From assembly GCA_040900015.1 (NCBI GenBank), contig JBBDZS010000022.1:1-51809 (forward strand): a DNA stretch of 51,809 nt, given 5' to 3'. A model generated the notes under the pieces. The model did no database searches. It had not been told where the DNA came from and saw only the letters and a program-made list of their open reading frames with translations. Shown piece after piece: positions 5,811 through 22,564 of the stretch. The position numbers were made by a program, and so were the translations under genes. Origin of the DNA: Minisyncoccota bacterium. Its GTDB lineage: Bacteria; Patescibacteriota; Minisyncoccia; Phycocordibacterales; UBA9973. Each line of letters opens with the position of its first letter. Position 1 is the first letter of the stretch.

Positions 5811-6908
5811 TTATATTCCCTCTTCTTTGAGCTTCTCTATTAGTTCACGAGATTTGCGAGAAATCTTGGTCGGTAGTTTGATGTTGAGCTTGATCAGGAT
5901 GTCACCTCTTTTGCCTTTACCCGCCGGCACGCCTTTACCTTTTACTCGTAGTATCTCGCCAATTGTCACTCCTTCCGGAATACTGACCTCTATTTCCCCG
6001 TCGAGTGTTTCGATAAAATGCTTCGCACCGAGTAAGGCATCGGAAAGTTTTAGATTCAAGGTCATAGATAAATCATTGCCTTCACGCTTGAACACTGGAT
6101 GCGCTGCCACATTAATCTTGATATAAAGGTCGCCGGTGGTGCCTTTGGATACCGCTTCGCCGTGTCCGGTCATCCGTATCATTTCGCCGTCTCGTATACC
6201 GGCTGGAATATTTAGAGTAATTTCTTCTTCTCTACGGAGCACTCCCTTGCCCTTGCATGTTTCGCATACTTCTTTCGGGACCTCTCCAGCCCCCAAGCAG
6301 GTTTCGCAGATTTTAGTATTGGCGATGGTGCCGAAAATAGTCCGCTTGGCTTCGTGAATCTTACCTTGTCCGTTGCACTTTTTGCATGTTTCCATTTTCG
6401 ATCCCTCCTTTGCGCCCGAACCCTTACAAGAGAGACAACTAGAAGTTTTTGTGATAAGTATTTTTCTTTCTACACCGAACACTGCATCAGAAAATGAAAT
6501 CTGAATTTCGGTGGAAATATCCCTACCTCTTCTTGCTTGAGCTCGGCCACCCCCCATACCTCCACTGAAAAAATCACTAAAAATATCGTTCAAATTTCCA
6601 AAATCGAAATCCACCGATCCGTTTCCAAAGCCTCCTGCGCCAGAGAAATCGAAACCGCCAAATCCCTGCGAAGCGCCGTAAGCCCCTCCGCCCATATTTT
6701 CGAATCCGGTGCCAAATTGATCGTACTTGGAGCGCTTGGAGTCATCGGAGAGCACTTGATATGCCTCGTTTACTTCTTTAAATTTAGCCTCGTCGCCCTC
6801 CTTTTTATCGGGGTGGTACTTGTGTGCCAACTTATAGAAAGCCTTCTTTATTTCGTCCTTTTTTGCGTCTTTATTGACGCCCAATATATCGTAATAGTCT
6901 TTTGCCAT
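5811..6908 (-). CDS. dnaJ: Molecular chaperone DnaJ
   Basis: J domain (DYYDILGV..HPDK), G/F-rich linker, four CxxCxGxG zinc-finger repeats, C-terminal substrate-binding domains. Confidence 0.95.
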   Translation of the reverse strand: MAKDYYDILGVNKDAKKDEIKKAFYKLAHKYHPDKKEGDEAKFKEVNEAYQVLSDDSKRSKYDQFGTGFENMGGGAYGASQGFGGFDFSGAGGFGNGSVDFDFGNLNDIFSDFFSGGMGGGRAQARRGRDISTEIQISFSDAVFGVERKILITKTSSCLSCKGSGAKEGSKMETCKKCNGQGKIHEAKRTIFGTIANTKICETCLGAGEVPKEVCETCKGKGVLRREEEITLNIPAGIRDGEMIRMTGHGEAVSKGTTGDLYIKINVAAHPVFKREGNDLSMTLNLKLSDALLGAKHFIETLDGEIEVSIPEGVTIGEILRVKGKGVPAGKGKRGDILIKLNIKLPTKISRKSRELIEKLKEEGI

Positions 6909-6914
6909 ATGGAT

Positions 6915-7010
6915 AGAATATCATAATTATCGGGTCTTTCGCAAGCCGACGGGCTGAGAATGAGCAAATTTTCAGCAGAAAATTATGCGACCCGATAATT
7001 ATGATATTCT
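6915..7010. repeat. Perfect 22-bp inverted repeat with 52-nt spacer in the ATPase-dnaJ intergenic region
   Basis: agaatatcataattatcgggtc (6915-6936) is the exact reverse complement of gacccgataattatgatattct (6989-7010). The proximal arm ends 6 nt upstream of the dnaJ ATG (6908). Confidence 0.9.
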
Positions 7011-7017
7011 TGTAATT

Positions 7018-8472
7018 TTATATCATCGGCTCAGCTTCCACAGATGGTTTATCGCCGTCCTTCTTATGCCCCTTGCCTTCGATGATAGCCTTCTCTTCCG
7101 CACTTCGGATAATGGTGGATTCCTCTTCAGCGATCAGCTTGGCCGCATCACCTCTTGGTATAGAATACTTTCTACGGGAAGCCTCGATTATTTCCTTCCT
7201 GTATGAAGTGTGGGTTGGTGGTAGAACACGCAGGGTTTCCGCCGAAAACGGATCATAAGACTCCCCGTCTATCGTCATCTTTATGTAAATTTCTCCGACT
7301 GCGAGATTTATCATATCTTTCACATCGAAAAGCGGAGAAAATTCTGGCTTCATTTTGACCGCGTCTTCCCCACCCACTCGAAATGTGATAACTGAACCTA
7401 CATTTCCGAGCACTGCCTGGTGCACCTTGGGTAATATCTGGCCGACATATTGATGAGCTATGGTAAGGTTGAGGCCGTATTTGCGCGCCTCAGATAAAAT
7501 ATTTTCAAATGTCTGAGTCACCACATTTTGAAACTCGTCGACATATAGATAGAAATCGACACGTTCTGACTCCGGTATGGCGGCACGCTCCATTCCGGCT
7601 TGCTTTATCTTAGTTAAGAACATCGAACCCAGAAAAGAGGAATTCTCTTCGCCTAGGCGACCCTTAGATAAATTGATGAAAATGATCTTGCGTTCGTTCA
7701 TCAGCTTACTTATGTCGATTTTATTCTCTTTCTGTCCAAAAATATTGCGAAGGAGCGGATCAGACAAAAATTGACCTAGCTTATTCACCAGCGGAATGAT
7801 AGCGTCGGTGTCGAACTTCTCCGACCAATCGGCAAATTCAATAGCGAAGAATCTTTTGACCATATCATCGGTGATGTATTCCACCACCTTCTGTCTATAA
7901 TTTCGATCCGTAAGCATTGATATCATTCCACGCATTGTGGCGTGAGGATAATCCAAAAGTGCCAGACAAGTGAAACGGAAGACATGTTCGAGCCTAGGGG
8001 TCCAGTTGGCACCGAATTGTTTCTGAAAAACTTCGATCAGTCCCTGGGTGAGCTGGAATTTGAACATCGGGTCCACATTGGCAAGTGGATTGAAAGAAGC
8101 AGGAAAATCAATGTCGGCTGGATCAATAATGCACACATCTTCGATACGTTCTTTAGGAATATAGTCGAGCATGGCATCGATGACATCGCCGTGTGGGTCG
8201 ATCAGACACAGACCGTGACTATATGTCACATCCTGGCGAAGCATAAGTTCTAGGAGCTTAGTCTTGCCTACGCCGGACTTACCGATGATATATAGGTGGC
8301 GCCTGCGGTCCACCCGCTTGATACCGAAAATGAATTTCTTTTCTTCGAGCGCAGCCACATAGTTCGTCCTGCCGATAAAAGACACCTCTTCGGGTTTGAC
8401 CTTGCCGAAAACAGGCAGCTCAGGCGGTGGAGGTCCATGTTTGATTATTTGCACCCGGTTCAGCTTGGACAT
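7018..8472 (-). CDS. Soluble TraD/VirD4-like (type IV coupling protein-like) P-loop ATPase, paralog 1
   Basis: Walker A IIGKSGVGKT, Walker B-like DFYLYVDEFQN, then SEARKYGLNLTIAHQY. No TM segment. Clear paralog of 10270-12339. Confidence 0.7.
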   Translation of the reverse strand: MSKLNRVQIIKHGPPPPELPVFGKVKPEEVSFIGRTNYVAALEEKKFIFGIKRVDRRRHLYIIGKSGVGKTKLLELMLRQDVTYSHGLCLIDPHGDVIDAMLDYIPKERIEDVCIIDPADIDFPASFNPLANVDPMFKFQLTQGLIEVFQKQFGANWTPRLEHVFRFTCLALLDYPHATMRGMISMLTDRNYRQKVVEYITDDMVKRFFAIEFADWSEKFDTDAIIPLVNKLGQFLSDPLLRNIFGQKENKIDISKLMNERKIIFINLSKGRLGEENSSFLGSMFLTKIKQAGMERAAIPESERVDFYLYVDEFQNVVTQTFENILSEARKYGLNLTIAHQYVGQILPKVHQAVLGNVGSVITFRVGGEDAVKMKPEFSPLFDVKDMINLAVGEIYIKMTIDGESYDPFSAETLRVLPPTHTSYRKEIIEASRRKYSIPRGDAAKLIAEEESTIIRSAEEKAIIEGKGHKKDGDKPSVEAEPMI

Positions 8473-8506: not shown

Positions 8507-10267
8507 CTAATATACTTCCTGCTGATAGCACTTTTCGCAATAAACAATTTCCGGCCGGTCGGGTGCGTATCCGGTTTTGAATATTTCTGGACAAGGAGAA
8601 TTATTATGATTGTGTTTCGTCGTGTTTTGATATGTACCTGTTACATCAGCAGTACCGGCACACATGCACGCTCGTTCGTATAAATGTACCTTAAGCCTAT
8701 CGCTGATACGGCGCTCGTGCCGGCATTCACTGCACAATCTTGGAACCGGGAGATTTTCTTTTTTATAAAAAATTAGCTCGTTCTCAAGTACACGATAGGG
8801 ATTTTTGCAATTATCGCATTCGATGACCTCTTTCAAAATTTGATCGTTTGCATCATTTATTGAACTCGGCAATTCATCGGCTTTTTTAGTAATCACATAT
8901 TCCCCTCTTTCGATTTCTATCCAGCCATATTTCTTAGCTTCGGCTTCTTCTTTTGATATCGGAAAATGTTGGACAGCTAGAGTATTATTATAGCCAAATG
9001 GCGACAATTCCGCAGGAAAAAATTCTCCATATTTATATACTGTTCCCTTGGAATCGACATATGGCATTTCATCCATATTCTTTTTAATTTTAGCTGCAAG
9101 TTTCTCGTACTCTTCCTTAGTATACTGTCTGTTTAGAATACAATACTGTTTTTTCTTTAATCCGACGCACCCAAAACAATCCGAGGAACTAAAAAGATGC
9201 ACGGAATATTCGCAACTTCGACAAGACGGCCAGCAGTTGCGAGAAAATTTATTATTGTATGAATTCTGCCCACATTCCATTGTTTCATAATTTAACTCTG
9301 TATATCCTCCCCAGTTTGTAGTATCGTAGTTATCTTTATTGCTTGGTACCTCGAGATACTGGCAATAACGCATGTTTTCACCCTCGCGGACTAAATAACT
9401 GTCATTTACTTTTTTACAGTCAGTGACATAAGAGCCGCTTGAATTTACATTCCTTAGACCTTGATTATATTTCACAGGTTGAGTGTTCCAAAACGCTCTT
9501 GTTTTCTTGCGTGCCTCCGCTAGGCCTGAACTTGTATCCAACTGCATTTTTTTGATCTCTTTTTCATAATCCTCTTTTGTGTACTGTTTATTAAAAATAC
9601 AATAAGAAGACTTCCGCAGATTGGTACTACCGAAACAATCATTACATCCCACACATCCCCTACAAAACCATAAGTTCCTTGAGTCCATTGATCTCTGGGT
9701 AAAATAACATTGGTAGCATTTATCCAACCAGAATGAATCGTAACAACGCTCAGAATGCGATACGTGAGAATTATCTACACAGTCTTTACAGGAATTAACT
9801 CCGTTACCATACATGCAATCTTCAGAGTTGTTTGAATTGCATAAAAGATAAGAATTCTTGAGTCGTGAGGCATTAAATGAATACGGGCTATTGATCATAC
9901 CAATAACATTAAAGTTATACATAGGTACTTTCATCTCGAGCTCATGCAATTGTTCCCAAAAGGATATAGAGAAATCTATTTCCATACCATAATCCATTGC
10001 ATCCCAACTATCCCCGAGCCAAGTTTCTCGAGTAATTATATTCCTTCCACTTTCTTTGGGGTAAGTAGATAGAATTTCTTTGCTAGAAAAAGCATCTTTT
10101 ACTTTGAAAAGCTTACGTTCGTTTCGGTAAACCATTCTTCTTTGTGCACGACAAAGCGGACAAAAAGTCGGTGGAGGTACTTTTATTTTTTCGTAGAAAC
10201 TAAAATCCTCAGGATCTATAGTAAAGTCTCGCTTGCAGTTCTGGCAGTTTTTAACTTCTTGTTTCAT
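8507..10267 (-). CDS. Cysteine-rich double zinc-ribbon protein, paralog 1 (uncharacterised family)
   Basis: 586 aa with no signal peptide or TM and about 34 Cys by manual count. N-terminal NCQNCKRDFTIDPEDFSFYEKIKVPPPTFCPLCRAQRR is echoed near the C-terminus as ECDNCKNPYRVLENELIFYKKENLPVPRLCSECRHERR. There are two internal C.GC..(R/K)K.YCI.N.QYTKE.YEK modules. The protein ends RPEIVYCEKCYQQEVY. Its ATG lies 2 nt after the upstream ATPase stop. Confidence 0.85.
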   Translation of the reverse strand: MKQEVKNCQNCKRDFTIDPEDFSFYEKIKVPPPTFCPLCRAQRRMVYRNERKLFKVKDAFSSKEILSTYPKESGRNIITRETWLGDSWDAMDYGMEIDFSISFWEQLHELEMKVPMYNFNVIGMINSPYSFNASRLKNSYLLCNSNNSEDCMYGNGVNSCKDCVDNSHVSHSERCYDSFWLDKCYQCYFTQRSMDSRNLWFCRGCVGCNDCFGSTNLRKSSYCIFNKQYTKEDYEKEIKKMQLDTSSGLAEARKKTRAFWNTQPVKYNQGLRNVNSSGSYVTDCKKVNDSYLVREGENMRYCQYLEVPSNKDNYDTTNWGGYTELNYETMECGQNSYNNKFSRNCWPSCRSCEYSVHLFSSSDCFGCVGLKKKQYCILNRQYTKEEYEKLAAKIKKNMDEMPYVDSKGTVYKYGEFFPAELSPFGYNNTLAVQHFPISKEEAEAKKYGWIEIERGEYVITKKADELPSSINDANDQILKEVIECDNCKNPYRVLENELIFYKKENLPVPRLCSECRHERRISDRLKVHLYERACMCAGTADVTGTYQNTTKHNHNNSPCPEIFKTGYAPDRPEIVYCEKCYQQEVY

Positions 10268-10269: not shown

Positions 10270-12339
10270 CTATTCCAAAACTTTCCTGAGTACATCTTCC
10301 GGAACTTCTTTGGGCTTCTGTGGCACAGGTGTATCGGCTTGTTTGGGTGGGCGTGGTGGCGGAGTCGGCACAGGTGTTTGAAAAATGGGTGCGGGCGCTT
10401 TTTCCGGCTCAGGTGTTGATTCGACAATTTTCTCTTTGATTAATTCTTTGAGTCGATTCATATCGTCCGAACTCGCAGCGCGATCTTTTTGCGGATGAGA
10501 TATTTCTTTGGTTTTATCCTTTAAGGCTTCGAGTGATATTGGTGCTGGCACCGGGGGTAGCTCAGGCTTGATCTCATGAGATGCCACTAAAGGTGTTGCA
10601 AGTGTTTTACTTATTATGTCCTTAAGGGCTGTATTTTCTCTCGGCGGGTGTGGTTTGTATGTCGGTTTTAATTGCTGTCTTGCCTGAGGCTTAGGTGATG
10701 GCTTTATCTGAGGTTTTGTTTGGTGCTTCACCTCGGCTTGCTGACCTTCCTTAGGTGGAAATTCTATACCAAGGTCGGCTAGTGGCTTGTAATATTTGGA
10801 ATCATCATATCTGACTTCGTTCTCTGGACCCTTTTCGACTTTGACTTCGCCAGATTTTATTTTAGCAATGCATTCTTTGCAATACACTGGCCTGCCTGGC
10901 TCCGGCTTGAAGGGTACAGTACTCTCTCTTTTACAAAGCGAACAAATTGTCTCAAATTTCTCAAAACTACCTCCCCCCGCACCGCTACTTTGTCCACGAT
11001 GTTCAGTATAATCTCCAGCAGATCCGAGTGACATTCCGCTCCAGCTATTTATTTCATTTTCGACCACTTCTTTGGACTTGCAATAAAGTTCGCGAGAGGA
11101 ATTGATGACCTGTTCCTCGATTTCCTTGTTTCCAGATTGCACCATAGGCGGTAAAGTCTTCGCAGAGAATGGTCGTGAAGTCACCCCGTCTATCATCAGC
11201 TTCAGATAGATTTTGTAATTCGGCAAGTTCACAATATCTTGCGGAGTAAATTCTGGATCGAATTCTTTTTCTAAAAAATCCGCATCATCGGAGCCCACGC
11301 GAAAAACTATCATCGTACCGACATTGCCGAATACAGCATCGCGCACGGCCGAGCTTTTATCAGAAATCAACTGTGCAGTGTATTGGTGCGCCACGGTCAA
11401 ATTCAGACGGTATTTACGGGCCTCGGAGAGTATGCCTGCGAAGGCGTCTGTTACGAAGTTTTGGAATTCGTCCACATATAGATAGAAATCCTTACGGCTA
11501 TCCTCTGGAATTCGCACCCTCTCCATAGCGGCGAGCTGAATCTTGGTAATTATCATACCTCCTAGGAGTGAGGAGTTATCCTCACCGATACGCCCCTTGG
11601 AAACATTTACCAGGAATATTTTGCCCTGGTTCATAATATCAAAAATATTAATCGTGCTCTTAGACTGGCCGACGACATTGCGGATAATCGAAGTAGAAAG
11701 AAACTGACCGACTTTGTTTTGGATCGGAGCAATGGCCTCGTTTCTAAATTTGTCCTGCCAGGCCTCGTACTCGTGCACCCAAAATGCCTTGATGACCGGG
11801 TCCTTGAGATTTGAAATTATCTTCTGACGATAATCCTTGTCCACGAGCATCCTGGGAATACCGAGAAGTGTGGTGCCTGGGGTATCGAGAAGCGCCAGAA
11901 TAGCATTGTTGAGAATATATTCCATTCGGGCAGACCAGGCGTTTGCCCATATCTTGGTGAAAATACCCATCAATCCCGAAGCGACGAGGTGCTTATATTG
12001 TGGGTCTACTAGCTCGAGCACATTAAAACCGATATGATAGTCGGTGTCCGCCGGGTTAAAATATACAACATCCTTTAGTCGGTGCGGTGGGATGGCCGAG
12101 AGCACTCCCTCGACGAGCTCTCCGTGTGGGTCCACTACGCAAACGCCTTCGCCGTTTAAAATATTCTGAATAACCATATTGAACATTAGCACGGATTTAC
12201 CAGTGCCGGACTTTCCGAGTAGGTATACATGCTGACGGCGATCTTTGCGCTTGATTCCGAAGAGAGTATTCTTGTCGCGATATGTGGTAAGGCCCAGATA
12301 TGTCAGGTCTTTATTTAATGGTATTTCCGGCGTGTCCAT
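10270..12339 (-). CDS. TraD/VirD4-like P-loop ATPase paralog 2 with C-terminal zinc ribbon and Pro/Lys-rich tail
   Basis: Walker A LLGKSGTGKS, DFYLYVDEFQN, SEARKYRLNLTVAHQY. Downstream come CSLCKRESTVPFKPEPGRPVYCKEC and a low-complexity KPQIKPSPKPQ..PVPTPPPRPPKQ tail. Start set to the ATG at 12337-12339 (MDTPEIPLNKD). Confidence 0.7.
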   Translation of the reverse strand: MDTPEIPLNKDLTYLGLTTYRDKNTLFGIKRKDRRQHVYLLGKSGTGKSVLMFNMVIQNILNGEGVCVVDPHGELVEGVLSAIPPHRLKDVVYFNPADTDYHIGFNVLELVDPQYKHLVASGLMGIFTKIWANAWSARMEYILNNAILALLDTPGTTLLGIPRMLVDKDYRQKIISNLKDPVIKAFWVHEYEAWQDKFRNEAIAPIQNKVGQFLSTSIIRNVVGQSKSTINIFDIMNQGKIFLVNVSKGRIGEDNSSLLGGMIITKIQLAAMERVRIPEDSRKDFYLYVDEFQNFVTDAFAGILSEARKYRLNLTVAHQYTAQLISDKSSAVRDAVFGNVGTMIVFRVGSDDADFLEKEFDPEFTPQDIVNLPNYKIYLKLMIDGVTSRPFSAKTLPPMVQSGNKEIEEQVINSSRELYCKSKEVVENEINSWSGMSLGSAGDYTEHRGQSSGAGGGSFEKFETICSLCKRESTVPFKPEPGRPVYCKECIAKIKSGEVKVEKGPENEVRYDDSKYYKPLADLGIEFPPKEGQQAEVKHQTKPQIKPSPKPQARQQLKPTYKPHPPRENTALKDIISKTLATPLVASHEIKPELPPVPAPISLEALKDKTKEISHPQKDRAASSDDMNRLKELIKEKIVESTPEPEKAPAPIFQTPVPTPPPRPPKQADTPVPQKPKEVPEDVLRKVLE

Positions 12340-12347
12340 ATGGAATA

Positions 12348-12356
12348 AGTATAACA
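12348..12356 (-). promoter_or_regulatory. Candidate extended -10 promoter (TGtTATACT) for the ATPase2 operon
   Basis: The minus strand reads ..CTGTTATACTTATTCCATATG. The -10 ends 8 nt before the ATG, implying a leaderless or near-leaderless mRNA. No good -35. Confidence 0.35.
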
Positions 12357-12370
12357 GTAAATAAACAAAC

Positions 12371-12405
12371 AAAAAAGCCCAAGGCGGTCGCCGAGAGGCT
12401 TTTTT
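12371..12405 (-). terminator. Candidate intrinsic terminator downstream of the small TM ORF
   Basis: A6 run, GC-rich imperfect hairpin (gcccaaggcggtcgccgagaggc), T6 run. The stem pairing is imperfect. Confidence 0.4.
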
Positions 12406-12421
12406 GTTTGTTTAGCAAAAT

Positions 12422-12607
12422 CTATTCCAGAGTGCTCTCTTCCGATGTGCCATCAGGAAGGCTTAAGTCTACATTGATATCAGACGCATCATCAGGGACG
12501 CCACCACGAGTAGCGAACCACCATACGCCAAAACCAACAAGAAGGACAAGTACAATAACAATCAACATTGTATTTGTACCTGAAGAATCATTGTGGGTAG
12601 GTTCCAT
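12422..12607 (-). CDS. Small single-pass membrane protein (hypothetical)
   Basis: 61 aa with a central hydrophobic helix MLIVIVLVLLVGFGVWWFA and an acidic C-terminus. It occupies an otherwise empty gap. Confidence 0.35.
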   Translation of the reverse strand: MEPTHNDSSGTNTMLIVIVLVLLVGFGVWWFATRGGVPDDASDINVDLSLPDGTSEESTLE

Positions 12608-12693
12608 ATTATGTATTCAAAAAATTACTAATAATATCGGCCACGGCATTATTATACCATTTGCAAGAACGCGAGGGCAACCAACTTTTCCAC

Positions 12694-13239: not shown

Positions 13240-13259
13240 ACATATATTATACCATAGTT

Positions 13260-13772: not shown

Positions 13773-13811
13773 AAATAGACTATATCTTAATTTACTAGCT
13801 TTGCAAACAAT

Positions 13812-13831: not shown

Positions 13832-13840
13832 ATTTGAAGA

Positions 13841-15781
13841 TTACTGTGTTTTTGGTTCCTCGCCTTCCGGGCCTTTAGGTTTTTCCTTGAATTCGGCATC
13901 CCGAGCAGGTCCTGAGCCTGTTGAAGGATTGACCTCGGCTGGCTGTTCTTCTGGAGTGCCAGCTGGTGGGGTTTCAGCTCCGAACTTGGCCATAGCCTCG
14001 CCAATCTTGGACATCTCAGCGGAGAGTTCTTCGGTCGCCTTCTTTATAGCATCCGTGTCAGTGCCGTCCTTTGCCCCTCGAAGTGCAGTGATCTTGGCAT
14101 TCACACCCTCTTTGAGCGCAGCGTCGAGTTTGGCATCGTTGTCCTTGAGCGCCTTCTCGGCAGTATACAAGGTCATCTCGGCAGTGTTCTTCAGATCAGC
14201 AATGTCTTTCTTCTTCTTATCCTCTTCCGCATGAGCTTCGGCATCTGCTTGCATCTTTTTTATGTCTTCTTCCTTGAGGCCGGAGCTGGCTTCGATCCGT
14301 ATGGACTGGGTCTTGCCGGAAGCCTTATCCTTGGCGGTGACATTTAAGATGCCGTTTGCGTCCACATCGAAAGTCACTTCGACCTGAGGCATGCCACGCG
14401 GTGCTGGAGGTACTCCGTCTAGTATAAACCTGCCGAGGGACTTATTATCGCTTGCCATAGGGCGCTCACCTTGGACGATGTGGATCTCCACGGAGGTCTG
14501 ATTGTCGGCTGCGGTCGAAAACACCTGCGACTTCGAGGACGGAATAGTGGTATTCCTTTCCACAAGCTTGGTGGCTACTCCTCCGAGAGTCTCGATGCCG
14601 AGAGACAGCGGTATGACATCGAGCAAAAGCACGTCACGTACATCTCCCTGGAGCACTCCGGCTTGCACTGCAGCACCGAGAGCCACGACTTCATCAGGAT
14701 TGATGGATAGGTTCGGAGTCTTGCCGAACACCTTCTTCACTTCTTCTACTATCTTCGGCATTCTAGTCTGACCTCCGACCATTATAATCTCATGCATATC
14801 CTCAATCTTAAATCCGGAAGCAGCCATTGCACGTTTAGTAATCTCAATCGAACGAGTAATATACTCATCAGCAATAGCTTCCAACTGGGCTCGCGTCATC
14901 TTGAGAAGAAGATGTTGAGGACCTTCGTCAGTAGAAGTGATAAACGGAATATTTATTTCTGTTTCGATCGCAGTCGAAAGTTCGATCTTGGCTTTTTCAG
15001 CTGCTTCGTCGAGGCGCTGTAGCGCCAATTTGTCTTTGCGCACATCCACGCCGGATGTTTTTTTGTATTCTTCGGCAATCCAACCAATGATCTTGTGGTC
15101 AATATCTCGACCTCCTAGATGACTGTCGCCATCGGTGGACTTAACTTCGATCACATCATCGCCAATTTCGAGCACGGACACATCGAATGTACCACCTCCG
15201 AAGTCATATACCACCACTTTTTCATTTTTCTTTTTATTAAATCCGTATGCGAGCGCAGCGGCCGTCGGCTCGTTGATAATTCTTTTTACATCGAGTCCCG
15301 CAATCAATCCTGCGTCCTTGGTGGCTTTTCTTTGTGCGTCATTAAAGTATGCAGGCACAGTGATGACGGCCTCGGTAACTTTTTCCCCGAGCTTCGCTTC
15401 CACATCAGCCTTTATCTTACCTAATATCATCGCGGATACTTCCTCTGGGCGCATCCATTTGTCGCCGATTTTTACTTCCACTCCACCAGTCGCGCCTTTT
15501 TGAATTTTGAATGATGCATTCTTAAGATCCTTCTGCACTTCCGGGTCATCGAAGTTGTGGCCCATAAAACGCTTAATACCGTACACAGTATTTTCCGGAT
15601 TAGTTACTGCTTGTCTCTTTGCGAGCAAGCCCACCAACCTGTCTCCGTTTTTTGCAACCGAAACAATAGATGGAGTTGTTCGTGCTCCCTCTGCATTTTC
15701 TACTATTTTCGGAGTACCCCCTTCGATAATGGCTACTGCCGAATTTGTCGTACCCAAGTCTATTCCTATGATTTTTGACAT
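13841..15781 (-). CDS. dnaK: Molecular chaperone DnaK (Hsp70)
   Basis: [18 protein letters not shown] and VGGQTRMP signatures, with a full substrate-binding domain and lid. Confidence 0.97.
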
Positions 15782-15907: not shown

Positions 15908-16453
15908 ATGTCAAGTAAAGATAAGGAAAACAACCAGTATTCTCGAAAAATCCTTAGAATATTGGGCCAAAAGTCGGCCGTATCGCTTGAAGATATAACC
16001 GATAAGGTAAGCGTCCACAAAGGGAAAAAGGACCCTAAATACGCGATTACACGCTCTTTAAAAGGCCTTCGTGAGGCCGGATTAATAGAGTGCATTTCCT
16101 CCCCACACAACGAATACGCCCGCCTGACAAAGGAAGGTAAAAAGAAGGTCCACAGCCTAGAGCTAGAAAGCGATACCAGCTTGGTCAACACCTCCTGGGA
16201 TGGACAATGGAGAATCATCCTGCTTGACCTGCCGGAGAGTCGCAAGGCCGAGCGCGAGAGCCTGCGCTACCTTCTAAAAAAGGCCGGTTTCGTGTGTCTG
16301 AAGAATTCTGCCTGGATCTCCCCTTTCCCCTTCGAGCACCTGTTCACAAATATCAAAAAAGACCTGGGTCTGACTACCGAAATGATGATCATAACCACAT
16401 CAAATATCGACGAGGAAACTAAAAAAATCCTATTCGAAACTTTCGGGAAGTAG
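15908..16453 (+). CDS. PaaX-like transcriptional regulator (winged helix plus Cas2-like middle domain)
   Basis: N-terminal wHTH (ILRILGQKSAVSLEDITDKV). Then the PaaX-type signature WDGQWRIILLDLPESRKAERESLRYLLKKAGFVCLKNSAWISPFP. Confidence 0.55.
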   Translation: MSSKDKENNQYSRKILRILGQKSAVSLEDITDKVSVHKGKKDPKYAITRSLKGLREAGLIECISSPHNEYARLTKEGKKKVHSLELESDTSLVNTSWDGQWRIILLDLPESRKAERESLRYLLKKAGFVCLKNSAWISPFPFEHLFTNIKKDLGLTTEMMIITTSNIDEETKKILFETFGK

Positions 16454-18211
16454 TTAATATACTTCTTTGTTGTAATGTTCGGCACAAACTACTTTTTTCG
16501 GCCCACCTTCGTTTTCCGGTAAATATGTAGTATCAATTTCTTTATCTCCGAAATAACACATTCTCTTTCTGAGAACCATTGGGTTTCTTAATTTTAATCT
16601 TTCATTATGCCGCTCGTCGGGATGAATAGATGGTAGTGGTAAATTAAATCTTCGATAGAAATTCAACTCTTGTTCAAGAATTTTAAAGGGTCTCCCCGTA
16701 ATTTCACATTCTATAACTTCATTCATGATATTGTCCCCTACTTCTGTTATAGTCTCAGGTAAATCTTTCCCATTTATCGTGGTTTGATAAGAGCCTAAAG
16801 TATATTCACGCCAAGAAAAACCTTTATCTTTTACAGAATCCCGACTAAGAGGAAAATAATCTTGAGCTACAGTTTCGTTATATGAAAAAGGCGAAATCTC
16901 TGGTGGAAAAAACTCTCCAAAAGCATAAGATTTACCGTTTTTATCTATATATGGCATATTTTTCATCTGTTCTATGATCTGTGGCACTAGGTTTTCATAC
17001 TCTTTTTTTGTATATTGCTTATTCAAAATACAATATTGTTTTTTATCTATACCTACACACCCAAAGCAATTATGAGAATTGGTTACCATATAACCATATA
17101 AAATTTCGTGAGAATACCATACAGTAGCTCCAAAAAATACCCTATTATCTTGAACTCCTACTCCGACACTTTCATAAGTTAATTCAGAATTATCACCACA
17201 GCCAGGCCCCACATCATACGAATCTCTTAAACCTTTTCCTCCCCAGTTAGCATATTTAGTATTTTCAATTACGTCTTTAACATCAAAAATCTGATAGCAA
17301 TTCCTAGCATCTGACACATGATCTCCTACTACATTATCTGTATTAGTAAGTTTTAAATGTTTATGGATCGCACTTTGCCATAATTCTCGAAATTTCTTTT
17401 TAGCATTTACAATACCTGAGCGAGTATTTAGAGCAAGTTCATTTTTCTTTTTTAGATATTCTTCTCTGGAATATTGTATATTCTCTATACAATAACTTTT
17501 ATTACGTAAATTGGTACTTAATATACAATCCGAGCAATTTCGACAATCATATAAAAAATATGAATCAAGACAATTTTCACTTTCTCTGGAGAAAAAAAGC
17601 TTACTGGAATCGTTACAATAAACATTTTCATAGCTAAATTCAGTATTAAAAGTAATATATGAGTCCAGAGTAAATTTACCCCCTGCCATTCGATTACAGA
17701 ACATACAATCTTCGCTAGCCCAAGCCCCACTTACTAAATAACAATTTTTCTGTTCAACTGTGTAATTACAAAATCTTGCATTTACGGATTTAGAATCAAA
17801 AAGAGCAACATGAGGAATTCTTTCCAATAACTCCTTAAACTGCTGAAAAAAAGGCTTATTGAAGTCATAATCCATTCCGAAATCGCATGGATCCCATTTA
17901 TCGCTCCACCAATATTCTCGATCGTATGTAGTAAATTTAGAATCCGGGTGATAAATAGAAATATGTTCACCGGTAGAACCAGGGGTACTATTTGGACGTC
18001 GAAACAAAGAATGTTCATTACGCCACAACAGACGACGAATGAGACGACACTCTGGACACCAAGTCGGCGACGGAACTTTTATTTTTTCGTAAAAAGAAAA
18101 ATCTTCTTTTTCTATAACGAAATCCCCTTTGCAGTTTTGGCAAGCTTGCACTGAACCCTTCGGTAGTGAGCTCAGGGCCGAACTGCTTGTTGAATGTGTT
18201 CTTATTTCCAT
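16454..18211 (-). CDS. Cysteine-rich double zinc-ribbon protein, paralog 2
   Basis: 585 aa. Motifs CQNCKGDFVIEKEDFSFYEKIKVPSPTWCPECRLIRR, YWWSDKWDPCDFGMDYDF, CRNCSDCILSTNLRNKSYCIENIQYSREEY and CFGCVGIDKKQYCILNKQYTKKEYE. The C-terminal ribbon is degenerate (ITGRPFKILEQELNFYRRFNLPLP, ending VVCAEHYNKEVY). Confidence 0.85.
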   Translation of the reverse strand: MEIRTHSTSSSALSSLPKGSVQACQNCKGDFVIEKEDFSFYEKIKVPSPTWCPECRLIRRLLWRNEHSLFRRPNSTPGSTGEHISIYHPDSKFTTYDREYWWSDKWDPCDFGMDYDFNKPFFQQFKELLERIPHVALFDSKSVNARFCNYTVEQKNCYLVSGAWASEDCMFCNRMAGGKFTLDSYITFNTEFSYENVYCNDSSKLFFSRESENCLDSYFLYDCRNCSDCILSTNLRNKSYCIENIQYSREEYLKKKNELALNTRSGIVNAKKKFRELWQSAIHKHLKLTNTDNVVGDHVSDARNCYQIFDVKDVIENTKYANWGGKGLRDSYDVGPGCGDNSELTYESVGVGVQDNRVFFGATVWYSHEILYGYMVTNSHNCFGCVGIDKKQYCILNKQYTKKEYENLVPQIIEQMKNMPYIDKNGKSYAFGEFFPPEISPFSYNETVAQDYFPLSRDSVKDKGFSWREYTLGSYQTTINGKDLPETITEVGDNIMNEVIECEITGRPFKILEQELNFYRRFNLPLPSIHPDERHNERLKLRNPMVLRKRMCYFGDKEIDTTYLPENEGGPKKVVCAEHYNKEVY

Positions 18212-18241: not shown

Positions 18242-19993
18242 CTAATACACTTCTTGCTGATAGCACTTTTCGCAGTACACTATTTCCGGTCTACTTGGAG
18301 AGTAAGAAGTCTCGAACTCCTCTTCACATTTATTATCACTATGAGTATGATTATTTTTATCACACATACAGGATCTATGCCAGAGTCGGAGCGGGTTTCG
18401 CTTACCTAGCCTTTGGAAATGCCGGCAGTTTGGGCACAACCGTGGAAGAGCCAGTTTCTTGCTTTTATAAAACTGTAGCTCGTCTGGTATAATTTTAAAT
18501 GCCTCCGTGCATTGTTCGGCACACTCGCCTCTGTGTATACAACCGATAACCTTACCTAAAATGGACTCATCCGTCTCGTCAATGTGGTCCGGCAAGTCCT
18601 TTGCTTTAATATCAACTTTGTAGTCTCTTTTTTCTTTTTCTTTCCATTTGAATCCATACTCGATGGCCTTTTCCCCGGAAAGTGGATAATATTCTTCCGC
18701 AACAGTTTCATTGTATGCGAAGGGTGAAAGTTCTGCAGGAAAAAATTCGCCATACTTATACACCCTGCCCTTCTTGTCCACATAGGGCATCTTCTTCATA
18801 TGAGTAATTATTTTAGGTAGGAGTTTGTCATATTCTGCCTTGGTATATTTCTTGTTTAAAATTGAATAGTCGTGATCTCTCACACCTACGCACCCAAAAA
18901 GAAATTTAGCACCGTAGCACATATAAGTATAGGTCGTATCCATACCACCGTGATTGAGAACTGAGAAAAGCTGTTTAGCGCCATTAAGACCTGTATCCAC
19001 ACCTTCATACATAAATTCTACTTTCGCCCCTGCGCCGTAGGCGTCATAACTGTCTCTTAAATTTAAGGCATGAGTAATAAATTTAGAATTCTCAACCTCG
19101 CCGTATATGTCGAACAACATTCGGCCGTTTTTGGAATTAAGTATATTGTCGCCGGTGACATTGACCGACTTATAGGTATAAGCAAAACGACGGAATTGTA
19201 GCTTGAGAAAATTTGCATACTCCTCTTTAAACCTGGTCAAATTTTCGTAGCTACCAAAGTCATACTCGGCAATCCTGCGTTCATATTCCTCCTTGGTATA
19301 CTGAATATTAAAAATACGATAGCTCTTGTGTCTCAAGTTCACACACCCTAGACAATTGTGGATATTCAAACAAGAAGTAAGAAACATCGAATCTATGCAC
19401 TCATCGCTATCATAACTAAAATGAGTTCGATACAAACTACCGCAAAGAACATCCTCGTAGCACTGCTCAGACTTCATAGTGTTGTAAAGATCGAAGGAAT
19501 CCTTTACCCCTACCACCCCAGCCGCATAGGAAACATTCTCATTTGAAAACGAAGCATATGTGAGATAACAATTCTTGCAATCTAAATTATGGTTGCCATA
19601 TTCGCTAAGCGGACAATTGGTGTTGCCTAGATTACATAAAGGCACTCGAGACATTAGCTCTTTAAACTGGTCGAAAAAAGGTCGAGAAAAATCATAATCC
19701 ATGCCGTAATCAAAAGGGTCCCACTTATCACTCCACCAAATATCCCTATCGTAAACCGTAAGACCGGTCTCAGGGGAGAACATGGAAACAATGGGGGCCC
19801 CGGAAAAAGCGCATATGTTGTGATGGAGCGAACGTTCATTACGCCAAACCAATCTTCTCCTCGCCCGACACAAAGGACAAAAAGTCGGAGGTGGAACTTT
19901 TATTTTTTGGTAAAAGCCAAAATCTTCACTCTCAATCGTGAATTCATGTTTACAGTTTTGACAATTTTTTCTTTCTTGCTTCATATGTTTCAT
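18242..19993 (-). CDS. Cysteine-rich double zinc-ribbon protein, paralog 3
   Basis: 583 aa. Motifs NCQNCKHEFTIESEDFGFYQKIKVPPPTFCPLCRARRR, IWWSDKWDPFDYGMDYDF, FGCVGVRDHDYSILNKKYTKAEYD and FKIIPDELQFYKSKKLALPRLCPNCRHFQR. It ends RPEIVYCEKCYQQEVY. Its start overlaps the ArsR stop (ATGA). Confidence 0.85.
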   Translation of the reverse strand: MKHMKQERKNCQNCKHEFTIESEDFGFYQKIKVPPPTFCPLCRARRRLVWRNERSLHHNICAFSGAPIVSMFSPETGLTVYDRDIWWSDKWDPFDYGMDYDFSRPFFDQFKELMSRVPLCNLGNTNCPLSEYGNHNLDCKNCYLTYASFSNENVSYAAGVVGVKDSFDLYNTMKSEQCYEDVLCGSLYRTHFSYDSDECIDSMFLTSCLNIHNCLGCVNLRHKSYRIFNIQYTKEEYERRIAEYDFGSYENLTRFKEEYANFLKLQFRRFAYTYKSVNVTGDNILNSKNGRMLFDIYGEVENSKFITHALNLRDSYDAYGAGAKVEFMYEGVDTGLNGAKQLFSVLNHGGMDTTYTYMCYGAKFLFGCVGVRDHDYSILNKKYTKAEYDKLLPKIITHMKKMPYVDKKGRVYKYGEFFPAELSPFAYNETVAEEYYPLSGEKAIEYGFKWKEKEKRDYKVDIKAKDLPDHIDETDESILGKVIGCIHRGECAEQCTEAFKIIPDELQFYKSKKLALPRLCPNCRHFQRLGKRNPLRLWHRSCMCDKNNHTHSDNKCEEEFETSYSPSRPEIVYCEKCYQQEVY

Positions 19994-20262
19994 TCTAACA
20001 TTCTAACGAACTTTAGAATGATATTTCCACGCGAGGTCAACTTATGACGTACTGATTTACTGTCGCTTCTCTTCATTAAGAGACCCGCAATGGCCATCTT
20101 GCCAATATGGGCCGAAATATTTTTCATATCTGATTTTAATCTATCTGATATCTCTTGCACTGATAATTCAGGCTCCTTGGAAAGCAAGGCTAAAATTTGC
20201 AACCTTCGATGATTGGCAACTCCTTTAATTATTCTTTCTAATTCTCTGTTAGATTTCTTCAT
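19990..20262 (-). CDS. ArsR/SmtB-family winged-helix transcriptional regulator
   Basis: ANHRRLQILALL..LSVQEISDRL..NISAHIGKMAIAGLL matches the ArsR HTH pattern. It contains no Cys, so it lacks the classical CxC metal site. Confidence 0.8.
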   Translation of the reverse strand: MKKSNRELERIIKGVANHRRLQILALLSKEPELSVQEISDRLKSDMKNISAHIGKMAIAGLLMKRSDSKSVRHKLTSRGNIILKFVRMLE

Positions 20263-20302
20263 ATTTTTATTTTAACATTCTATAGAACGTTGGAATGTAC
20301 TA

Positions 20303-21964
20303 TTAAGCTATGTTTTGCTTGTAACAGTCCTCGCAGGCGATTTTCTGGTAGCCCCATTCCGGAGGATAGTAAGCGCTAATTTCTTTTTTACAGTAAAAGC
20401 ATTTGTAAGGATAGCTTTTTACAACCGCAGTCTTACGTGCTTTCTTTATGATACGCAAATCAAAATGCTCTCTAGGAAGGGCAAAACCTTTTCTCTTATG
20501 GAATTCATATTCAGCTGGAGAAATGTTAAATCGAAAGTTACTCTCGGGGCAAATAAGAGCCTGGTTAGAAACACTCGAGTCCGTATCTTGAATACTGTCG
20601 GGTAAATCCAGGGAAGAGATTCCGTCGTGGGATGAAAGGTCTTCTTCTGACCAGTATCCTCCCTTTTTTACAACTTCATTCTTTGTCGTGTCCGGAAAGT
20701 AGATAATACCGTTAGAAAAATTATAGTCGCAGACACTCATAAAATATGGCATAAATAGTCCATACTCTCCCCTGCTTTTCATATCGGAAATAATCTTATC
20801 TTTAAGAGACTCGTAATCCTCTTTGCTGTATTGCTTGTTTAAAATGCAATATTTCTTTTTTTTGAGACCCACGCATCCGAAACAATACTCCACTTCCTCG
20901 CACAAATCTATGTATTCTGAGTATCTGCCGACAGAGTATATTGAGTTCTTTATCTGATATCCTCCGTTCACTGCACTGTTGCTACCAGATAACTCGGTAT
21001 GCCAACTTACCGCCTGATCAATACTATCCTTTGAGAAAAGACCGCGTAGGCAGTTTCTACAATTCTGCGAGTCGTCCCAAGTAAAGCAGTTAGAGCATTT
21101 GTCGCAATTATTAAGATAGTTGCCGGTAGAGCCCGCAGACTTTAGATTGAAATTTTCCCTGTGAACAACTTCGTTTCTCAGAATATTTGCGAATTCTGCT
21201 CTTAGATTCTCCAAGGATTTATAGGAATCAAGCTTGAGCTTTTTTATCTCCACTTCATATTCTTCTTTCGTGTACTGCTTGTTTTTTATGCAGTATTGCT
21301 TGTTACGTAGGTTCCAGCTCATAAAGCAATTCTGGCAGTTACGGCAATCAAAAAGAAAAAAGGAGTCTATGCAATCCCGAGAGTTTTCTGAAAAGTTCAG
21401 ATTAAAGGAACTATGGCAGGTCAGGCAATCATAACAGTTCTGTATATGAAAAGAAATTGCTACATCAAAAGAGTCCTTGGCGTCCAAAACCCTGTATCCA
21501 TAATTTAAGTTATCGCATTTTGCAAGAGCTCTTGATAGATAGCAGTTTTTTGAGTCCCACACATCCTCACACCAATCACAGTTGACGTTGTTTTTCCCAG
21601 CCTGGTGTGGACGTGGGATTTTACCTTGAAGCTCCTTCAGTTGGTCAAAAAACGGCCTTTCTGAATCATATTCTTGACCAAAAGCCATTGGATCCCATGC
21701 ATCGCTCCACCATTCGTGGGAGGTGTATATAGGGTATGTCTTTCTCTCCGGCAACACCGTAATCAGACTCTCACCTGACAGACTCGAAGCTCCTTTACGG
21801 AATTTACCGAAAATGGAAAAAGCAAGATATTGCTTCATTCTACAAAAGAAACACTGTTCTGGAATTTCTAAACCTACTTTCTGGTATAAGTCCAAATCAC
21901 CTGAATTTATTTCAAATTGCTTCTCGCAGTTTACACAAATTTTATTCTCCGTCTTTGTATTCAT
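20303..21964 (-). CDS. Cysteine-rich double zinc-ribbon protein, paralog 4 (most divergent)
   Basis: 553 aa. Motifs CVNCEKQFEINSGDLDLYQKVGLEIPEQCFFCR, EWWSDAWDPMAFGQEYD, CRNCQNCFMSWNLRNKQYCIKNKQYTKEEYE and CFGCVGLKKKKYCILNKQYSKEDYE. It ends IACEDCYKQNIA. Its first 23 nt overlap the grpE 3' end. Confidence 0.85.
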   Translation of the reverse strand: MNTKTENKICVNCEKQFEINSGDLDLYQKVGLEIPEQCFFCRMKQYLAFSIFGKFRKGASSLSGESLITVLPERKTYPIYTSHEWWSDAWDPMAFGQEYDSERPFFDQLKELQGKIPRPHQAGKNNVNCDWCEDVWDSKNCYLSRALAKCDNLNYGYRVLDAKDSFDVAISFHIQNCYDCLTCHSSFNLNFSENSRDCIDSFFLFDCRNCQNCFMSWNLRNKQYCIKNKQYTKEEYEVEIKKLKLDSYKSLENLRAEFANILRNEVVHRENFNLKSAGSTGNYLNNCDKCSNCFTWDDSQNCRNCLRGLFSKDSIDQAVSWHTELSGSNSAVNGGYQIKNSIYSVGRYSEYIDLCEEVEYCFGCVGLKKKKYCILNKQYSKEDYESLKDKIISDMKSRGEYGLFMPYFMSVCDYNFSNGIIYFPDTTKNEVVKKGGYWSEEDLSSHDGISSLDLPDSIQDTDSSVSNQALICPESNFRFNISPAEYEFHKRKGFALPREHFDLRIIKKARKTAVVKSYPYKCFYCKKEISAYYPPEWGYQKIACEDCYKQNIA

Positions 21965-22538
21965 ACACGTTTACCCTTGCTGGGCGCATCACTCGCTCGC
22001 CCAGCTTGTAGCCCTTCTGGACCACTTCGGCCACCTTGTGGTCCATCTCCTTTTTGTCGGTCGGCACCATATCAATCGATTCATGAATGTTCGGATCGAA
22101 AGGTTCGCCCCCTTCCCCCACGCCCTTAACGCCGTATTCCTCGAATATAATGTTCATCTGGGAGTATATGTATTCCACACCTTTGCGCCACGAAGAATCC
22201 ACTTTTTCCCAGGCATCCTTGTTGGCAAAGGCCATATTGAAACTATCAACTACAGAGAGAAATCTCGAGAGGATACGCTCGCGCACCGCCTCGGAAAAGA
22301 CTGTCTTACGGTCATCCTCCTGCTTTTTATAATTAGCAAAATCCGCCCGCTCCTTCTGCCAGCCGTTTAGGTATTCCTCTTTTTCCTTCTTAGCCTGCTT
22401 TAGGTCTGCGCGAAGTTTCTTGATGGTCTTCTTCAAATCCTCCTCGCCGTCCTCGTTGAATTCGAATTCCAACACTTCCGCTTCCAGCTCAGCTTGGGTA
22501 TCTTCCGTATTTTTCTTTTCTTCCTCTTCGCTTGACAT
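21942..22538 (-). CDS. grpE: Nucleotide exchange factor GrpE
   Basis: Acidic N-terminus, coiled coil (LKKTIKKLRADLKQAKKEKEEYLNGWQKERADFANYKKQ) and C-terminal beta domain (GYKLGERVMRPARV). The ATG at 22538 is preferred over 22556 because the upstream terminator U-tract abuts 22556. Confidence 0.9.
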   Translation of the reverse strand: MSSEEEEKKNTEDTQAELEAEVLEFEFNEDGEEDLKKTIKKLRADLKQAKKEKEEYLNGWQKERADFANYKKQEDDRKTVFSEAVRERILSRFLSVVDSFNMAFANKDAWEKVDSSWRKGVEYIYSQMNIIFEEYGVKGVGEGGEPFDPNIHESIDMVPTDKKEMDHKVAEVVQKGYKLGERVMRPARVNVYEYKDGE

Positions 22539-22564
22539 ATATGGTAATACTAGCATAAAAAAAT

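Follow-up and report, generated by a model that had tools for sequence, protein, structure and literature searches.

Among the systems described so far, the closest relatives of the ATPases treated here are components of type IV secretion systems (T4SSs). In a survey of Patescibacteria (bioRxiv 10.1101/2025.01.22.634366), 5,713 VirD4-like homologs were counted in 2,918 genomes (about two per genome), of which 148 lie near virB4; relaxases were nearly absent, proteins of the TrsD type (which resemble the N-terminal part of VirB4) were abundant, and the authors, for whom the exaptation of type IV coupling proteins (T4CPs) remains possible, left the role of these homologs open. In this work we analyse a stretch of 51,809 nt (contig JBBDZS010000022.1 of assembly GCA_040900015.1, hereafter the window), which is part of the core chromosome of a Paceibacteria metagenome-assembled genome (NCBI locus tags WD991_022xx) and in which two TraD/VirD4-like ATPases (ATPase-1 and ATPase-2, or A1 and A2) and four genes of a Cys-rich protein family (the Cys family) are found among the chaperone genes grpE, dnaK and dnaJ. 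An initial annotation of this DNA had taken the arrangement for a candidate undescribed system. Based on the comparison of homologous loci, the association between the Cys family and the ATPases is real and conserved, with no description found in the literature searched, and the conserved unit is the Cys family together with A1/A2, found across the Paceibacteria, and not the chaperone operon. No class of the Candidate Phyla Radiation (CPR) is more abundant than the Paceibacteria, whose genomes are typically sub-megabase and about whose interaction with hosts, to our knowledge, almost nothing is known.

The two ATPases resemble the T4CPs (TrwB of R388, VirD4, TraD and DotL) in their P-loop nucleotide-binding domain, with Walker A (GKSGVGKT/S) and Walker B (YVDEFQN) motifs, and in their Pfam matches, namely to PF10412 (TrwB_AAD_bind; 29.0 bits for A1 and 35.2 for A2, cut-off 20.5), PF02534 (T4SS-DNA_transf; 25.7 and 32.4 bits, cut-off 20.1) and PF12696 (TraG-D_C; 22 and 25.1 bits, cut-off 22). 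The best solved relative of the ATPase family profile is TrwB (E 3.7e-7), with DotL matching more weakly, and the earlier TraD/VirD4-like label is borne out by both kinds of match. Additionally, just as T4CPs go with their substrates, a set of putative clients is encoded next to A1 and A2. Unlike the T4CPs, however, A1 and A2 lack the N-terminal transmembrane (TM) anchor, are found as two paralogs per locus, fall far under all NCBIfam equivalog cut-offs (best match conju_CD1115, 49.9 vs 250 bits; SXT_TraD 48.5 vs 366) and are not near virB4, relaxase or other T4SS genes; in two genomes, such an ATPase is linked to the membrane through a fused A3-like domain (described below). A1 and A2 are 46% identical over 429 aligned residues and form two ortholog groups: A1 (about 485 aa, orthologs 66-93% identical) and A2 (about 650-700 aa, 53-74% identical), the latter carrying, again unlike T4CPs, a C-terminal CxxC-x17-CxxC treble-clef zinc finger (zf_Tbcl_2, E 9e-12; TIGR04272) and a Pro/Lys-rich tail. 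By sequence, A1 and A2 are best described as distant, atypical and anchor-less relatives of the TrwB/VirD4 coupling proteins, outside any characterised subfamily, and the two or so VirD4-like homologs per CPR genome would fit the A1 plus A2 pair. A second, purely analogical likeness is to the type VII secretion ATPases EssC/EccC, which are of the FtsK type and are encoded beside variable arrays of genes for small helical WXG/LXG substrates: here too a translocation-type ATPase stands by a co-oriented array, variable in number, of paralogous candidate substrates, but the ATPases belong to another clade and the candidates are ancient multi-zinc paralogs of 580 aa.

In order to map the association, homologous loci (numbered L001, L006 and so on) were gathered by baiting either with the Cys family or with A1. 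The Cys-family bait gave 77 loci from different species genomes, all of Parcubacteria/Paceibacteria type (78 with the window), in which open reading frame (ORF) clustering recognised 289 Cys genes, organised as 88 same-strand tandem arrays of 1-11 genes. Separately, on a contig from a single-cell genome (JALLOO010000001.1, 349-39616, covering L071 and L027), about 19 tandem Cys genes occupy about 37 kb and are followed by A2. Of the 77 loci, 35 encode a member of the A1/A2 family of P-loop ATPases, and 43 of the 110 observable array ends (39%) have one within 2.5 kb; with two such genes per genome of less than 1 Mb, chance would place one this close to a random point in about 1% of cases, by a rough estimate. 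The A1 bait gave 80 metagenome loci, and where at least 5 kb was available on both sides (29 loci) a Cys gene was found in 25 and A2 in 22; in 44 of the 65 loci for which one side extended over 3 kb or more, a Cys gene lies within 1 kb of A1. Adjacent Cys/ATPase gene pairs are always co-oriented (190/190), and the median gap between Cys genes is 4 nt. Below about 80% A1 identity the gene order becomes [SecD SecF], sigma4/HARE-HTH, A3, (small TM protein), A1, Cys(n), A2, and in the most divergent loci A3-A1-A2 is found with no Cys gene in range.

These data also bear on the possibility that ATPase and Cys genes have no functional link and are neighbours merely by the conserved synteny of small CPR genomes. 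Housekeeping genes do recur near the arrays (SecD/F, CutA, M17 aminopeptidase and PGK, recognised by sequence inspection), as such synteny would have it, but every gene family other than the ATPases stays at 8 loci or fewer, where the ATPases reach 35. Moreover, the Cys arrays sit between A1 and A2 in differing gene orders and lineages, co-oriented and with short gaps, and A2 shares its zinc-finger type with the Cys family, and we regard mere synteny as highly improbable.

The Cys family is new. More than 7,000 matches were found in a 90% clustered collection, with 5,196 clusters at 50% identity for E <=1e-3 (2,251 for E <=1e-30); every match named by the source is called hypothetical, and no Pfam domain is assigned to any of the matches. 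Members are of even length, 550-600 aa (typically about 580 aa), and among the best 150 clusters listed almost all are 520-625 aa long and match end to end. Sequence-profile searches of Pfam, NCBIfam and the PDB with the Cys paralogs gave weak zinc-ribbon matches only and no HMM assigned the family core to a characterised family, in agreement with the initial annotation, which had treated these genes as uncharacterised; our literature search found no paper describing them. A treble-clef zinc ribbon opens each member, and behind a linker come two copies of a solenoid-like domain carrying a Cys/Ser ladder, then an alpha/beta domain, the zinc ribbon once more and, at the C-terminus, a CxxC...CxxC finger. 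The second ribbon, at residues 478-528, duplicates the N-terminal one (hhalign 98.7%), the central domains 115-262 and 262-402 duplicate each other (hhalign 99.8%), and the C-terminal finger weakly resembles that of A2 (hhalign E 1e-4). The families zf_Tbcl (PF13451) and zf_Tbcl_2 (PF23477, TIGR04272) match the terminal domains in part of the family, and zf_Tbcl_2 also matches the A2 finger: in a Pfam scan of 47 diverse members, zf_Tbcl was found in 24 (best E 3.7e-6) and zf_Tbcl_2 in 13 (best E 1.5e-5), with nothing else recurrent, while the zinc-finger matches of window paralog 1 are sub-threshold (E 0.009, 0.09 and 0.34). These are, however, modules of about 40 residues that cover less than 25% of a Cys protein and leave a core of about 430 residues without a family match. 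The AlphaFold2 model of paralog 1 is well defined (predicted local distance difference test, pLDDT, 83; predicted TM-score, pTM, 0.86), and Foldseek found no match to it in the PDB at E <5 and only zinc-ribbon matches of 40-66 residues in BFVD.

The Cys residues themselves fall into two classes. In 248 full-length members (median 34 Cys, range 23-45; median isoelectric point 6.3; no TM segment), the conserved Cys are at positions 8/11/36/39, 205/208/211/214, 367/376, 484/487/512/515 and 534/559/577/580, with 58/61/79/82 optional. The quartets 8/11/36/39, 484/487/512/515 and 534/559/577/580 are 83-99% conserved, and the variable terminal sets are gained and lost as units (phi 0.86-1.0), a pattern by which only 3-4 tetra-Cys sites appear to behave as zinc sites. 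The central Cys (about 20) vary independently of one another (phi <=0.34) and are replaced mainly by Ser, and since their presence does not co-vary in pairs, obligate disulfides are unlikely. Almost all distances between central Cys are multiples of 3 (1,493 at d=3, 1,483 at d=9 and 1,293 at d=12, vs 33 at d=1 and 14 at d=2), forming a Cys/Ser ladder over residues 110-400 (paralog 1 numbering) with a 12-residue super-period, for which no PDB counterpart was found. The Tenebrio antifreeze protein is a tight 12-residue beta-solenoid with a Cys/Ser core, and the ladder resembles it in its 3-residue lattice, in its 12-residue super-period and in a model with little regular secondary structure and periodic isolated beta-bridges; it differs in having no Foldseek match and in being a cytoplasmic, internal domain of a larger protein. 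On this pattern of spacing, independent variation and replacement by Ser, the central Cys would be core-packing positions of a tight solenoid rather than metal ligands.

This pattern weakens the proposal of the initial annotation that the Cys-rich proteins are zinc or thiol buffers, in which the roughly 34 Cys per protein would store or sense metal or the redox state. The number of Cys in the family, the presence of an ArsR/SmtB-type regulator inside the arrays of several genomes and the zinc binding of CxxC-x17-CxxC domains in small proteins of Methanosarcina mazei (PMC12704099) speak for such a role, whereas unit-wise gain and loss is confined to the terminal tetra-Cys sites, the central Cys are exchanged for Ser on a strict lattice as in core packing, the ArsR-type protein has neither Cys nor an evident sensing site, and the high conservation of aromatic and structural residues, together with the paralog subfamilies, is unexpected for a simple buffer. 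A metal-buffer role for all 34 Cys was rejected after the lattice and covariation analyses, and a buffer function in general seems to us very improbable.

How the paralogs evolve bears on another alternative, in which they would be subunits of a large cytoplasmic or membrane-associated solenoid scaffold that A1/A2 assemble or remodel. For 96% of the members the nearest relative belongs to another genome (median identity 57%) and not to their own array (median 43%, maximum 62%), and neither recent duplicates nor toxin-type fusions were found in the family; recent array expansion, or a turnover like that of antigenic variation, was rejected on these values. Ancient, separately maintained paralogs are what such a scaffold would have, as are the uniform length across the 5,196 clusters, the location of conserved positions mostly at aromatic and structural (not catalytic) residues and the duplicated core with its strict lattice. 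Nevertheless, the number of Cys copies varies from 0 to 5 per slot in close relatives and from 1 to about 19 per locus or contig, which is hard to fit to a fixed stoichiometry, and we know of no T4CP-type ATPase that serves as an assembly factor. We consider the scaffold explanation quite unlikely.

A third component, A3, is also encoded in the window and goes with A1 in most lineages; it adjoins A1 or A2, on the upstream side, in about 31 of the A1-baited loci. It consists of an N-terminal TM helix and a domain of about 400 aa without a P-loop. Two fusion proteins of 791-794 aa (L025:13671-16055 and L028:12938-15313) begin with a TM helix, continue with an A3-like domain (E 2e-17 and 4e-15) and end in a T4CP-like ATPase (E 3e-107 and 1e-100), and that of L028 occupies the usual A2 position, without the zinc finger. 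It is likely that A3 is the membrane partner of A1/A2, and with A3 anchored in the membrane and joined to the ATPase in these two fusions, the motors probably act there. That A3 could be a third ATPase was rejected (no P-loop, an hhalign probability of 0.2%, and clustering with A1/A2 that is due to the fusion proteins). Its AlphaFold2 model (pLDDT 75, pTM 0.72) was compared with the PDB by Foldseek, and 8 of the 9 top matches are TrwK/VirB4 (best E 2.4e-4, probability up to 1.0, TM-score normalised to the query about 0.30, root-mean-square deviation about 10 A). In the A3-ATPase fusions the layout is likewise that of VirB4, with an N-terminal domain followed by an ATPase, and TrsD, of which similar proteins are abundant in CPR, resembles the N-terminal domain of VirB4 in T4SSs of monoderms. 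A3 differs from VirB4 in having no P-loop and no sequence similarity, the TM-scores being 0.30 (query) and 0.16 (target), and the fused ATPase is nearer to the T4CPs. Searches with the A3 sequence gave no match in the PDB, in NCBIfam or in a Pfam set that lacks PF26449; A3 homologs carry the PF26449 tag in source databases, and a literature search on this family found nothing relevant.

The reading most compatible with the data, and the one that we tentatively favour while granting that it may well be wrong, is that an exapted ATPase module of T4SS type has the Cys-rich proteins for clients or cargo, with A1 and A2 as ring motors recruited to the membrane. It comes closest to what the initial annotation had listed as ATPase-driven handling or export. 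The conserved ATPase association, the operon-like packing of the genes, the kinship of A1/A2 with T4CPs, the A3-ATPase fusions with the VirB4-like A3 model, the shared zinc-finger type and the orphan VirD4-like homologs of the survey speak for it. In this mechanism, A3 would recruit A1/A2 to the membrane, where they would act as ring motors on the Cys proteins, as secretion coupling proteins do on their substrates, and would recognise the conserved zinc-finger ends of these proteins (the zinc-finger type zf_Tbcl_2 being common to A2 and the Cys family). The Cys proteins would then be handed to a translocon, possibly a relaxase-less T4SS encoded elsewhere in these genomes, or else be loaded or remodelled, and the many ancient paralogs would represent a repertoire of distinct cargos or cargo adaptors.

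Several observations weigh against the cargo reading. Translocation of the Cys proteins and their binding to the ATPases are argued by analogy and not from direct observation; the Cys proteins have no signal peptide, and their 3-4 stable zinc sites would be awkward for an unfolding translocon. Their orthologs are fairly conserved (median 57% identity to the nearest relative in another genome), with no recent duplicates or toxin fusions, unlike fast-evolving effectors. Neither ATPase has a TM segment (maximum 19-residue hydropathy 1.05 for A1 and 1.27 for A2), and no T4SS or relaxase family was found either in the Pfam scan of 38 window proteins (15 short ORFs of 70-201 aa being outside the scan) or among the recurrent neighbours. 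At 61% of the Cys array ends there is no ATPase nearby, and in some loci (among them L132, L141, L143, L149 and L151) the A1-A2 pair has no Cys gene closer than 10 kb. Finally, the A3-VirB4 similarity is structural only, weak and without sequence support.

The same proteins may be viewed as a nucleic-acid handling system, in which the zinc ribbons of the Cys family would bind DNA or RNA and A1/A2 would be translocases like TrwB or FtsK, for DNA uptake, export or processing, with different paralogs for different targets. The three terminal domains are treble-clef zinc ribbons, a fold that often binds nucleic acid, T4CPs are DNA-dependent ATPases, the constant neighbour of A3 is a DNA-binding protein with sigma-70 region 4 and HARE-HTH domains, and the T4SSs of CPR are relaxase-less and located near competence and recombination genes. 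Against this, the Cys family is neutral to acidic (median isoelectric point given above) and not basic overall, it has no conserved His and no nuclease, relaxase or helicase motifs were found in it, and the Pfam/NCBIfam searches detected no nucleic-acid-binding family. In our judgement this explanation is unlikely, though it deserves to be kept in mind beside the cargo reading.

The chaperone genes, which the initial annotation had taken as the organising frame, are a different matter. The window shares with the canonical hrcA-grpE-dnaK-dnaJ operon the same three chaperone genes, their relative order and their strand, but differs from it in about 15 kb of interleaved genes, terminator-like hairpins, a PaaX-like gene on the opposite strand, an apparently monocistronic dnaK and the absence of any hrcA seen. 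The resulting frame is grpE-Cys(n)-PaaX(opposite strand)-dnaK-...-A2-Cys(n)-A1-dnaJ-small TM ORF, and it is present in the window, L001, L006, L020, L048 and partly L066 (5 of the 78 loci of the Cys set, counting the window), and in every A1-baited locus with enough flank whose A1 is at least 83% identical to that of the window (about 23 loci). In this chaperone clade the frame itself is fixed, and each of the three slots (grpE/PaaX, A2/A1 and dnaJ/TM ORF, the last with Cys genes only sometimes inserted) holds 0-5 Cys genes. Any chaperone gene is found in 6 of the 77 Cys-baited loci, vs 35 for the ATPase, and interleaving is confined to the clade; the expectation that the Cys family would be enriched near both kinds of gene thus held for the TraD-like ATPase and, outside one clade, failed for dnaK, dnaJ and grpE. 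In a few divergent loci (L012, L099, L124 and L149), the module has dnaJ, with or without dnaK, at 0.2-6 kb on its upstream side, and an old neighbourhood may therefore have been rearranged. The splitting of the dnaK operon reflects a rearrangement peculiar to one lineage, and the system is not to be understood from it: in the sub-lineage of the window, the module became interleaved with grpE, dnaK and dnaJ. Fortuitous placement, also raised in the initial annotation, is the simplest explanation of the link to the chaperone genes, though not of the ATPase association.

A chaperone-centred proteostasis system, with the Cys proteins as obligate clients, sensors or partners of DnaK/DnaJ/GrpE (a further part of the zinc/thiol and export hypotheses of the initial annotation), would draw on the stability of this frame, on the overlap or abutment of grpE with a Cys gene in the window, L001, L048 and L096, and on the upstream dnaJ or dnaK of the four divergent loci. 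The lack of interleaving beyond the clade counts against it, as do the promoter-like site and terminator of dnaK itself, the hairpins between A1 and dnaJ, and the loci within the clade in which Cys genes are missing from the grpE-dnaK interval (L083) or from the A2-A1 interval (L083, L087, L092 and L095), and we hold it to be improbable. In the window sub-lineage at least one Cys paralog nevertheless looks co-transcribed with grpE, judging by the gene junctions, and it is possible that DnaK/DnaJ/GrpE keep the multi-zinc Cys proteins translocation-competent.

The gene map of the initial annotation was reproduced in full, with all ORFs and every junction that it gave (Table 1). The region looks like several transcription units, with the Cys genes coupled in two of them. 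The first, grpE-Cys4-ArsR-Cys3-Cys2, starts at grpE, just downstream of a terminator-like hairpin, and its junctions are overlaps or gaps of at most 40 nt: a 40-nt gap from paralog 4 to the ArsR-type gene, a 4-nt ATGA overlap from there to paralog 3, and 30 nt between paralogs 3 and 2. The second is A2-Cys1-A1, with 34 nt between paralog 1 and A1. Because dnaK has a promoter-like site of its own (11/12 matches) and a terminator hairpin, the latter as earlier proposed, it is apparently monocistronic. The hairpin in the interval between the small TM ORF and A2 may be a terminator or an attenuator, and as the annotated TTG start of A2 (12372) is within it, the ATG at 12339, giving 689 aa, is probably the true start. 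The 109-nt gap between A1 and dnaJ holds a 22-nt inverted repeat that ends 6 nt ahead of the dnaJ ATG. Its arm has no other copy in the window, and the idea of a dispersed repeat was rejected on that ground; hairpins of differing sequence are found at the same place in 6 of 15 related loci, with the 3' arm abutting TATAAT in L006, L078 and L085 and with TTGACC inside the arm in L078 and L085. These A1/dnaJ hairpins may be operators, or terminators combined with a promoter for dnaJ. Of the co-transcription that had been proposed for both chaperone junctions, the part concerning grpE and the Cys genes looks likely, given their overlap and short gaps, and that concerning dnaJ does not, given the strong hairpin.

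Table 1. Features of the window, and hairpins at the equivalent A1/dnaJ position in related loci (TM, transmembrane; ORF, open reading frame; dG, free energy change; z, z-score).
Feature	Coordinates	Strand	Remarks
Small multi-TM ORF	5483-5809	minus	1 nt from dnaJ; 3' of dnaJ in most chaperone-clade loci
dnaJ	5811-6908	minus	TIGR02349, 396 bits vs cut-off 377
Perfect 22-nt inverted repeat	arms 6915-6936 / 6989-7010	minus	52-nt spacer; dG -46.2, z -7.9
ATPase-1 (A1)	7018-8472	minus	484 aa; very highly conserved
Cys paralog 1	8507-10267	minus	586 aa, 34 Cys; best-conserved subfamily, orthologs 65-81% identical
ATPase-2 (A2)	10270-12372 by ORF (TTG), probable 10270-12339	minus	2 nt from paralog 1
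Strong hairpin, small TM ORF/A2 interval	12362-12414	minus	18-nt arms, U tract; dG -34.7, z -6.97
Small TM ORF	12422-12607	minus	
GerMN protein	12694-13239	minus	Pfam
RsbW-like protein, HATPase_c_2	13260-13772	minus	Pfam
Terminator-like hairpin after dnaK	13809-13834	minus	11-bp G+C-rich stem, tetraloop, U-rich tail
dnaK	13841-15781	minus	NCBIfam DnaK, 918.7 bits vs cut-off 648
Promoter-like site of dnaK	15914-15885		
PaaX-like regulator (winged helix-turn-helix + PaaX_M)	15908-16453	plus	divergent from dnaK; PF20803, E 1.6e-20
Cys paralog 2	16454-18211	minus	585 aa, 23 Cys; C-terminal zinc sites degenerate
Cys paralog 3	18242-19993	minus	583 aa (longest ORF), 27 Cys
ArsR/SmtB-type winged-helix regulator	19990-20262	minus	inside Cys array; Pfam, NCBIfam
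Cys paralog 4	20303-21964	minus	553 aa, 31 Cys; second and third C-terminal zinc sites degenerate
grpE	21942-22556	minus	starts transcription unit; 23-nt overlap with Cys paralog 4
Terminator-like hairpin upstream of grpE	22555-22590		
451-aa protein	26809-28164		
393-aa protein	28167-29348		
A3	34276-35598	minus	N-terminal TM helix + domain of about 400 aa
Sigma-70 region 4 + HARE-HTH protein	35613-36641	minus	Pfam; constant upstream neighbour of A3
307-aa protein	39252-40175		
tRNA-Tyr	42101-42185	minus	
ClpB	42245-44935		
Class-V aminotransferase	45569-46741		
tRNA cluster (Cys, Leu, Lys, Leu)	49068-49577	minus	
A1/dnaJ hairpins in related loci	L006:16620-16690; L066:6930-7075; L078:8079-8290; L085:2152-2445; L097:9103-9200; L133:1148-1295		

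The identities given earlier to dnaK and dnaJ (which pass NCBIfam equivalog cut-offs) and to the ArsR-type, PaaX-like, RsbW-like and GerMN proteins (Pfam) were all confirmed; for grpE, all NCBIfam matches are GrpE models (E 2.6e-26), under the equivalog cut-offs. The four Cys ORFs of the window are true paralogs, with pairwise identities of 30-42%, and the NCBI gene call for paralog 3 starts 9 nt downstream, giving 580 aa. A positional ortholog of paralog 4 adjoins grpE in L001, L006, L020, L080, L090 and L096 (54-71% identity). The ArsR-type protein matches NF033788 (E 3.6e-12, 45.9 bits, cut-off 55) and, over the cut-offs, Pfam HTH_20 and HTH_5; inspection of its sequence, with 0 Cys and only 3 His, found no recognisable metal-sensing motif, and homologs lie within or beside Cys arrays in L019, L031, L035, L083, L094 and L144. 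The PaaX-like gene keeps its position and orientation in all chaperone-clade loci that reach upstream of dnaK and belongs to the clade-specific frame; it could encode a regulator of dnaK in a lineage where no hrcA was seen. It was also observed beside A1 or Cys genes, without dnaK, in L049, L051 and L129. The RsbW-like, GerMN and small TM genes are lineage-specific filler outside the conserved module, their slot (12422-13772) being taken by other genes in L001 and L006.

The flanks of the window encode S9, L13, RpoA, S4, AlaRS, MnmA, MltG, BipA, GlmS, ClpB and IF-2, and an origin as a mobile element or island was rejected in view of these ribosomal proteins, RpoA, tRNA synthetases and ClpB and of the lack of a sharp compositional break. 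With the PADLOC defence models, the Cys proteins and A3 gave no match and the ATPases only generic weak matches to mad8 and HerA, on which result a known anti-phage defence system was rejected as well. Among the other genes, ClpB (the disaggregase partner of DnaK) and a cysteine desulfurase-like class-V aminotransferase are encoded about 20 kb from the chaperone genes, and the window also carries a tRNA cluster and a separate tRNA-Tyr. The 451-aa and 307-aa proteins have no Pfam match; the 451-aa family recurs in 5 loci (cluster 16), and its ORF adjoins that of a 393-aa protein with weak FtsA/actin-like similarity.

As a result of this comparison, the orphan VirD4-like homologs of CPR gain a consistent genomic partner, a very large family whose clusters at 50% identity number over 5,000 and for which no solved fold gave a match. 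A further-reaching version of the cargo reading, which we find possible but doubtful, is a class-wide translocation pathway of the Paceibacteria built from exapted T4SS parts (A3 with A1/A2) and dedicated to up to about 19 ancient Cys paralogs of a new fold, which would be delivered to or across the envelope and perhaps into hosts. If such a pathway exists, it would account for the two or so orphan T4CP homologs per CPR genome and would give the relaxase-less T4SS of CPR its first candidate family of cargo proteins. The open role of the orphan coupling proteins thereby becomes testable, in terms of the binding of A1/A2 to the zinc-finger ends, of anchoring by A3 and of Cys proteins leaving the cell.

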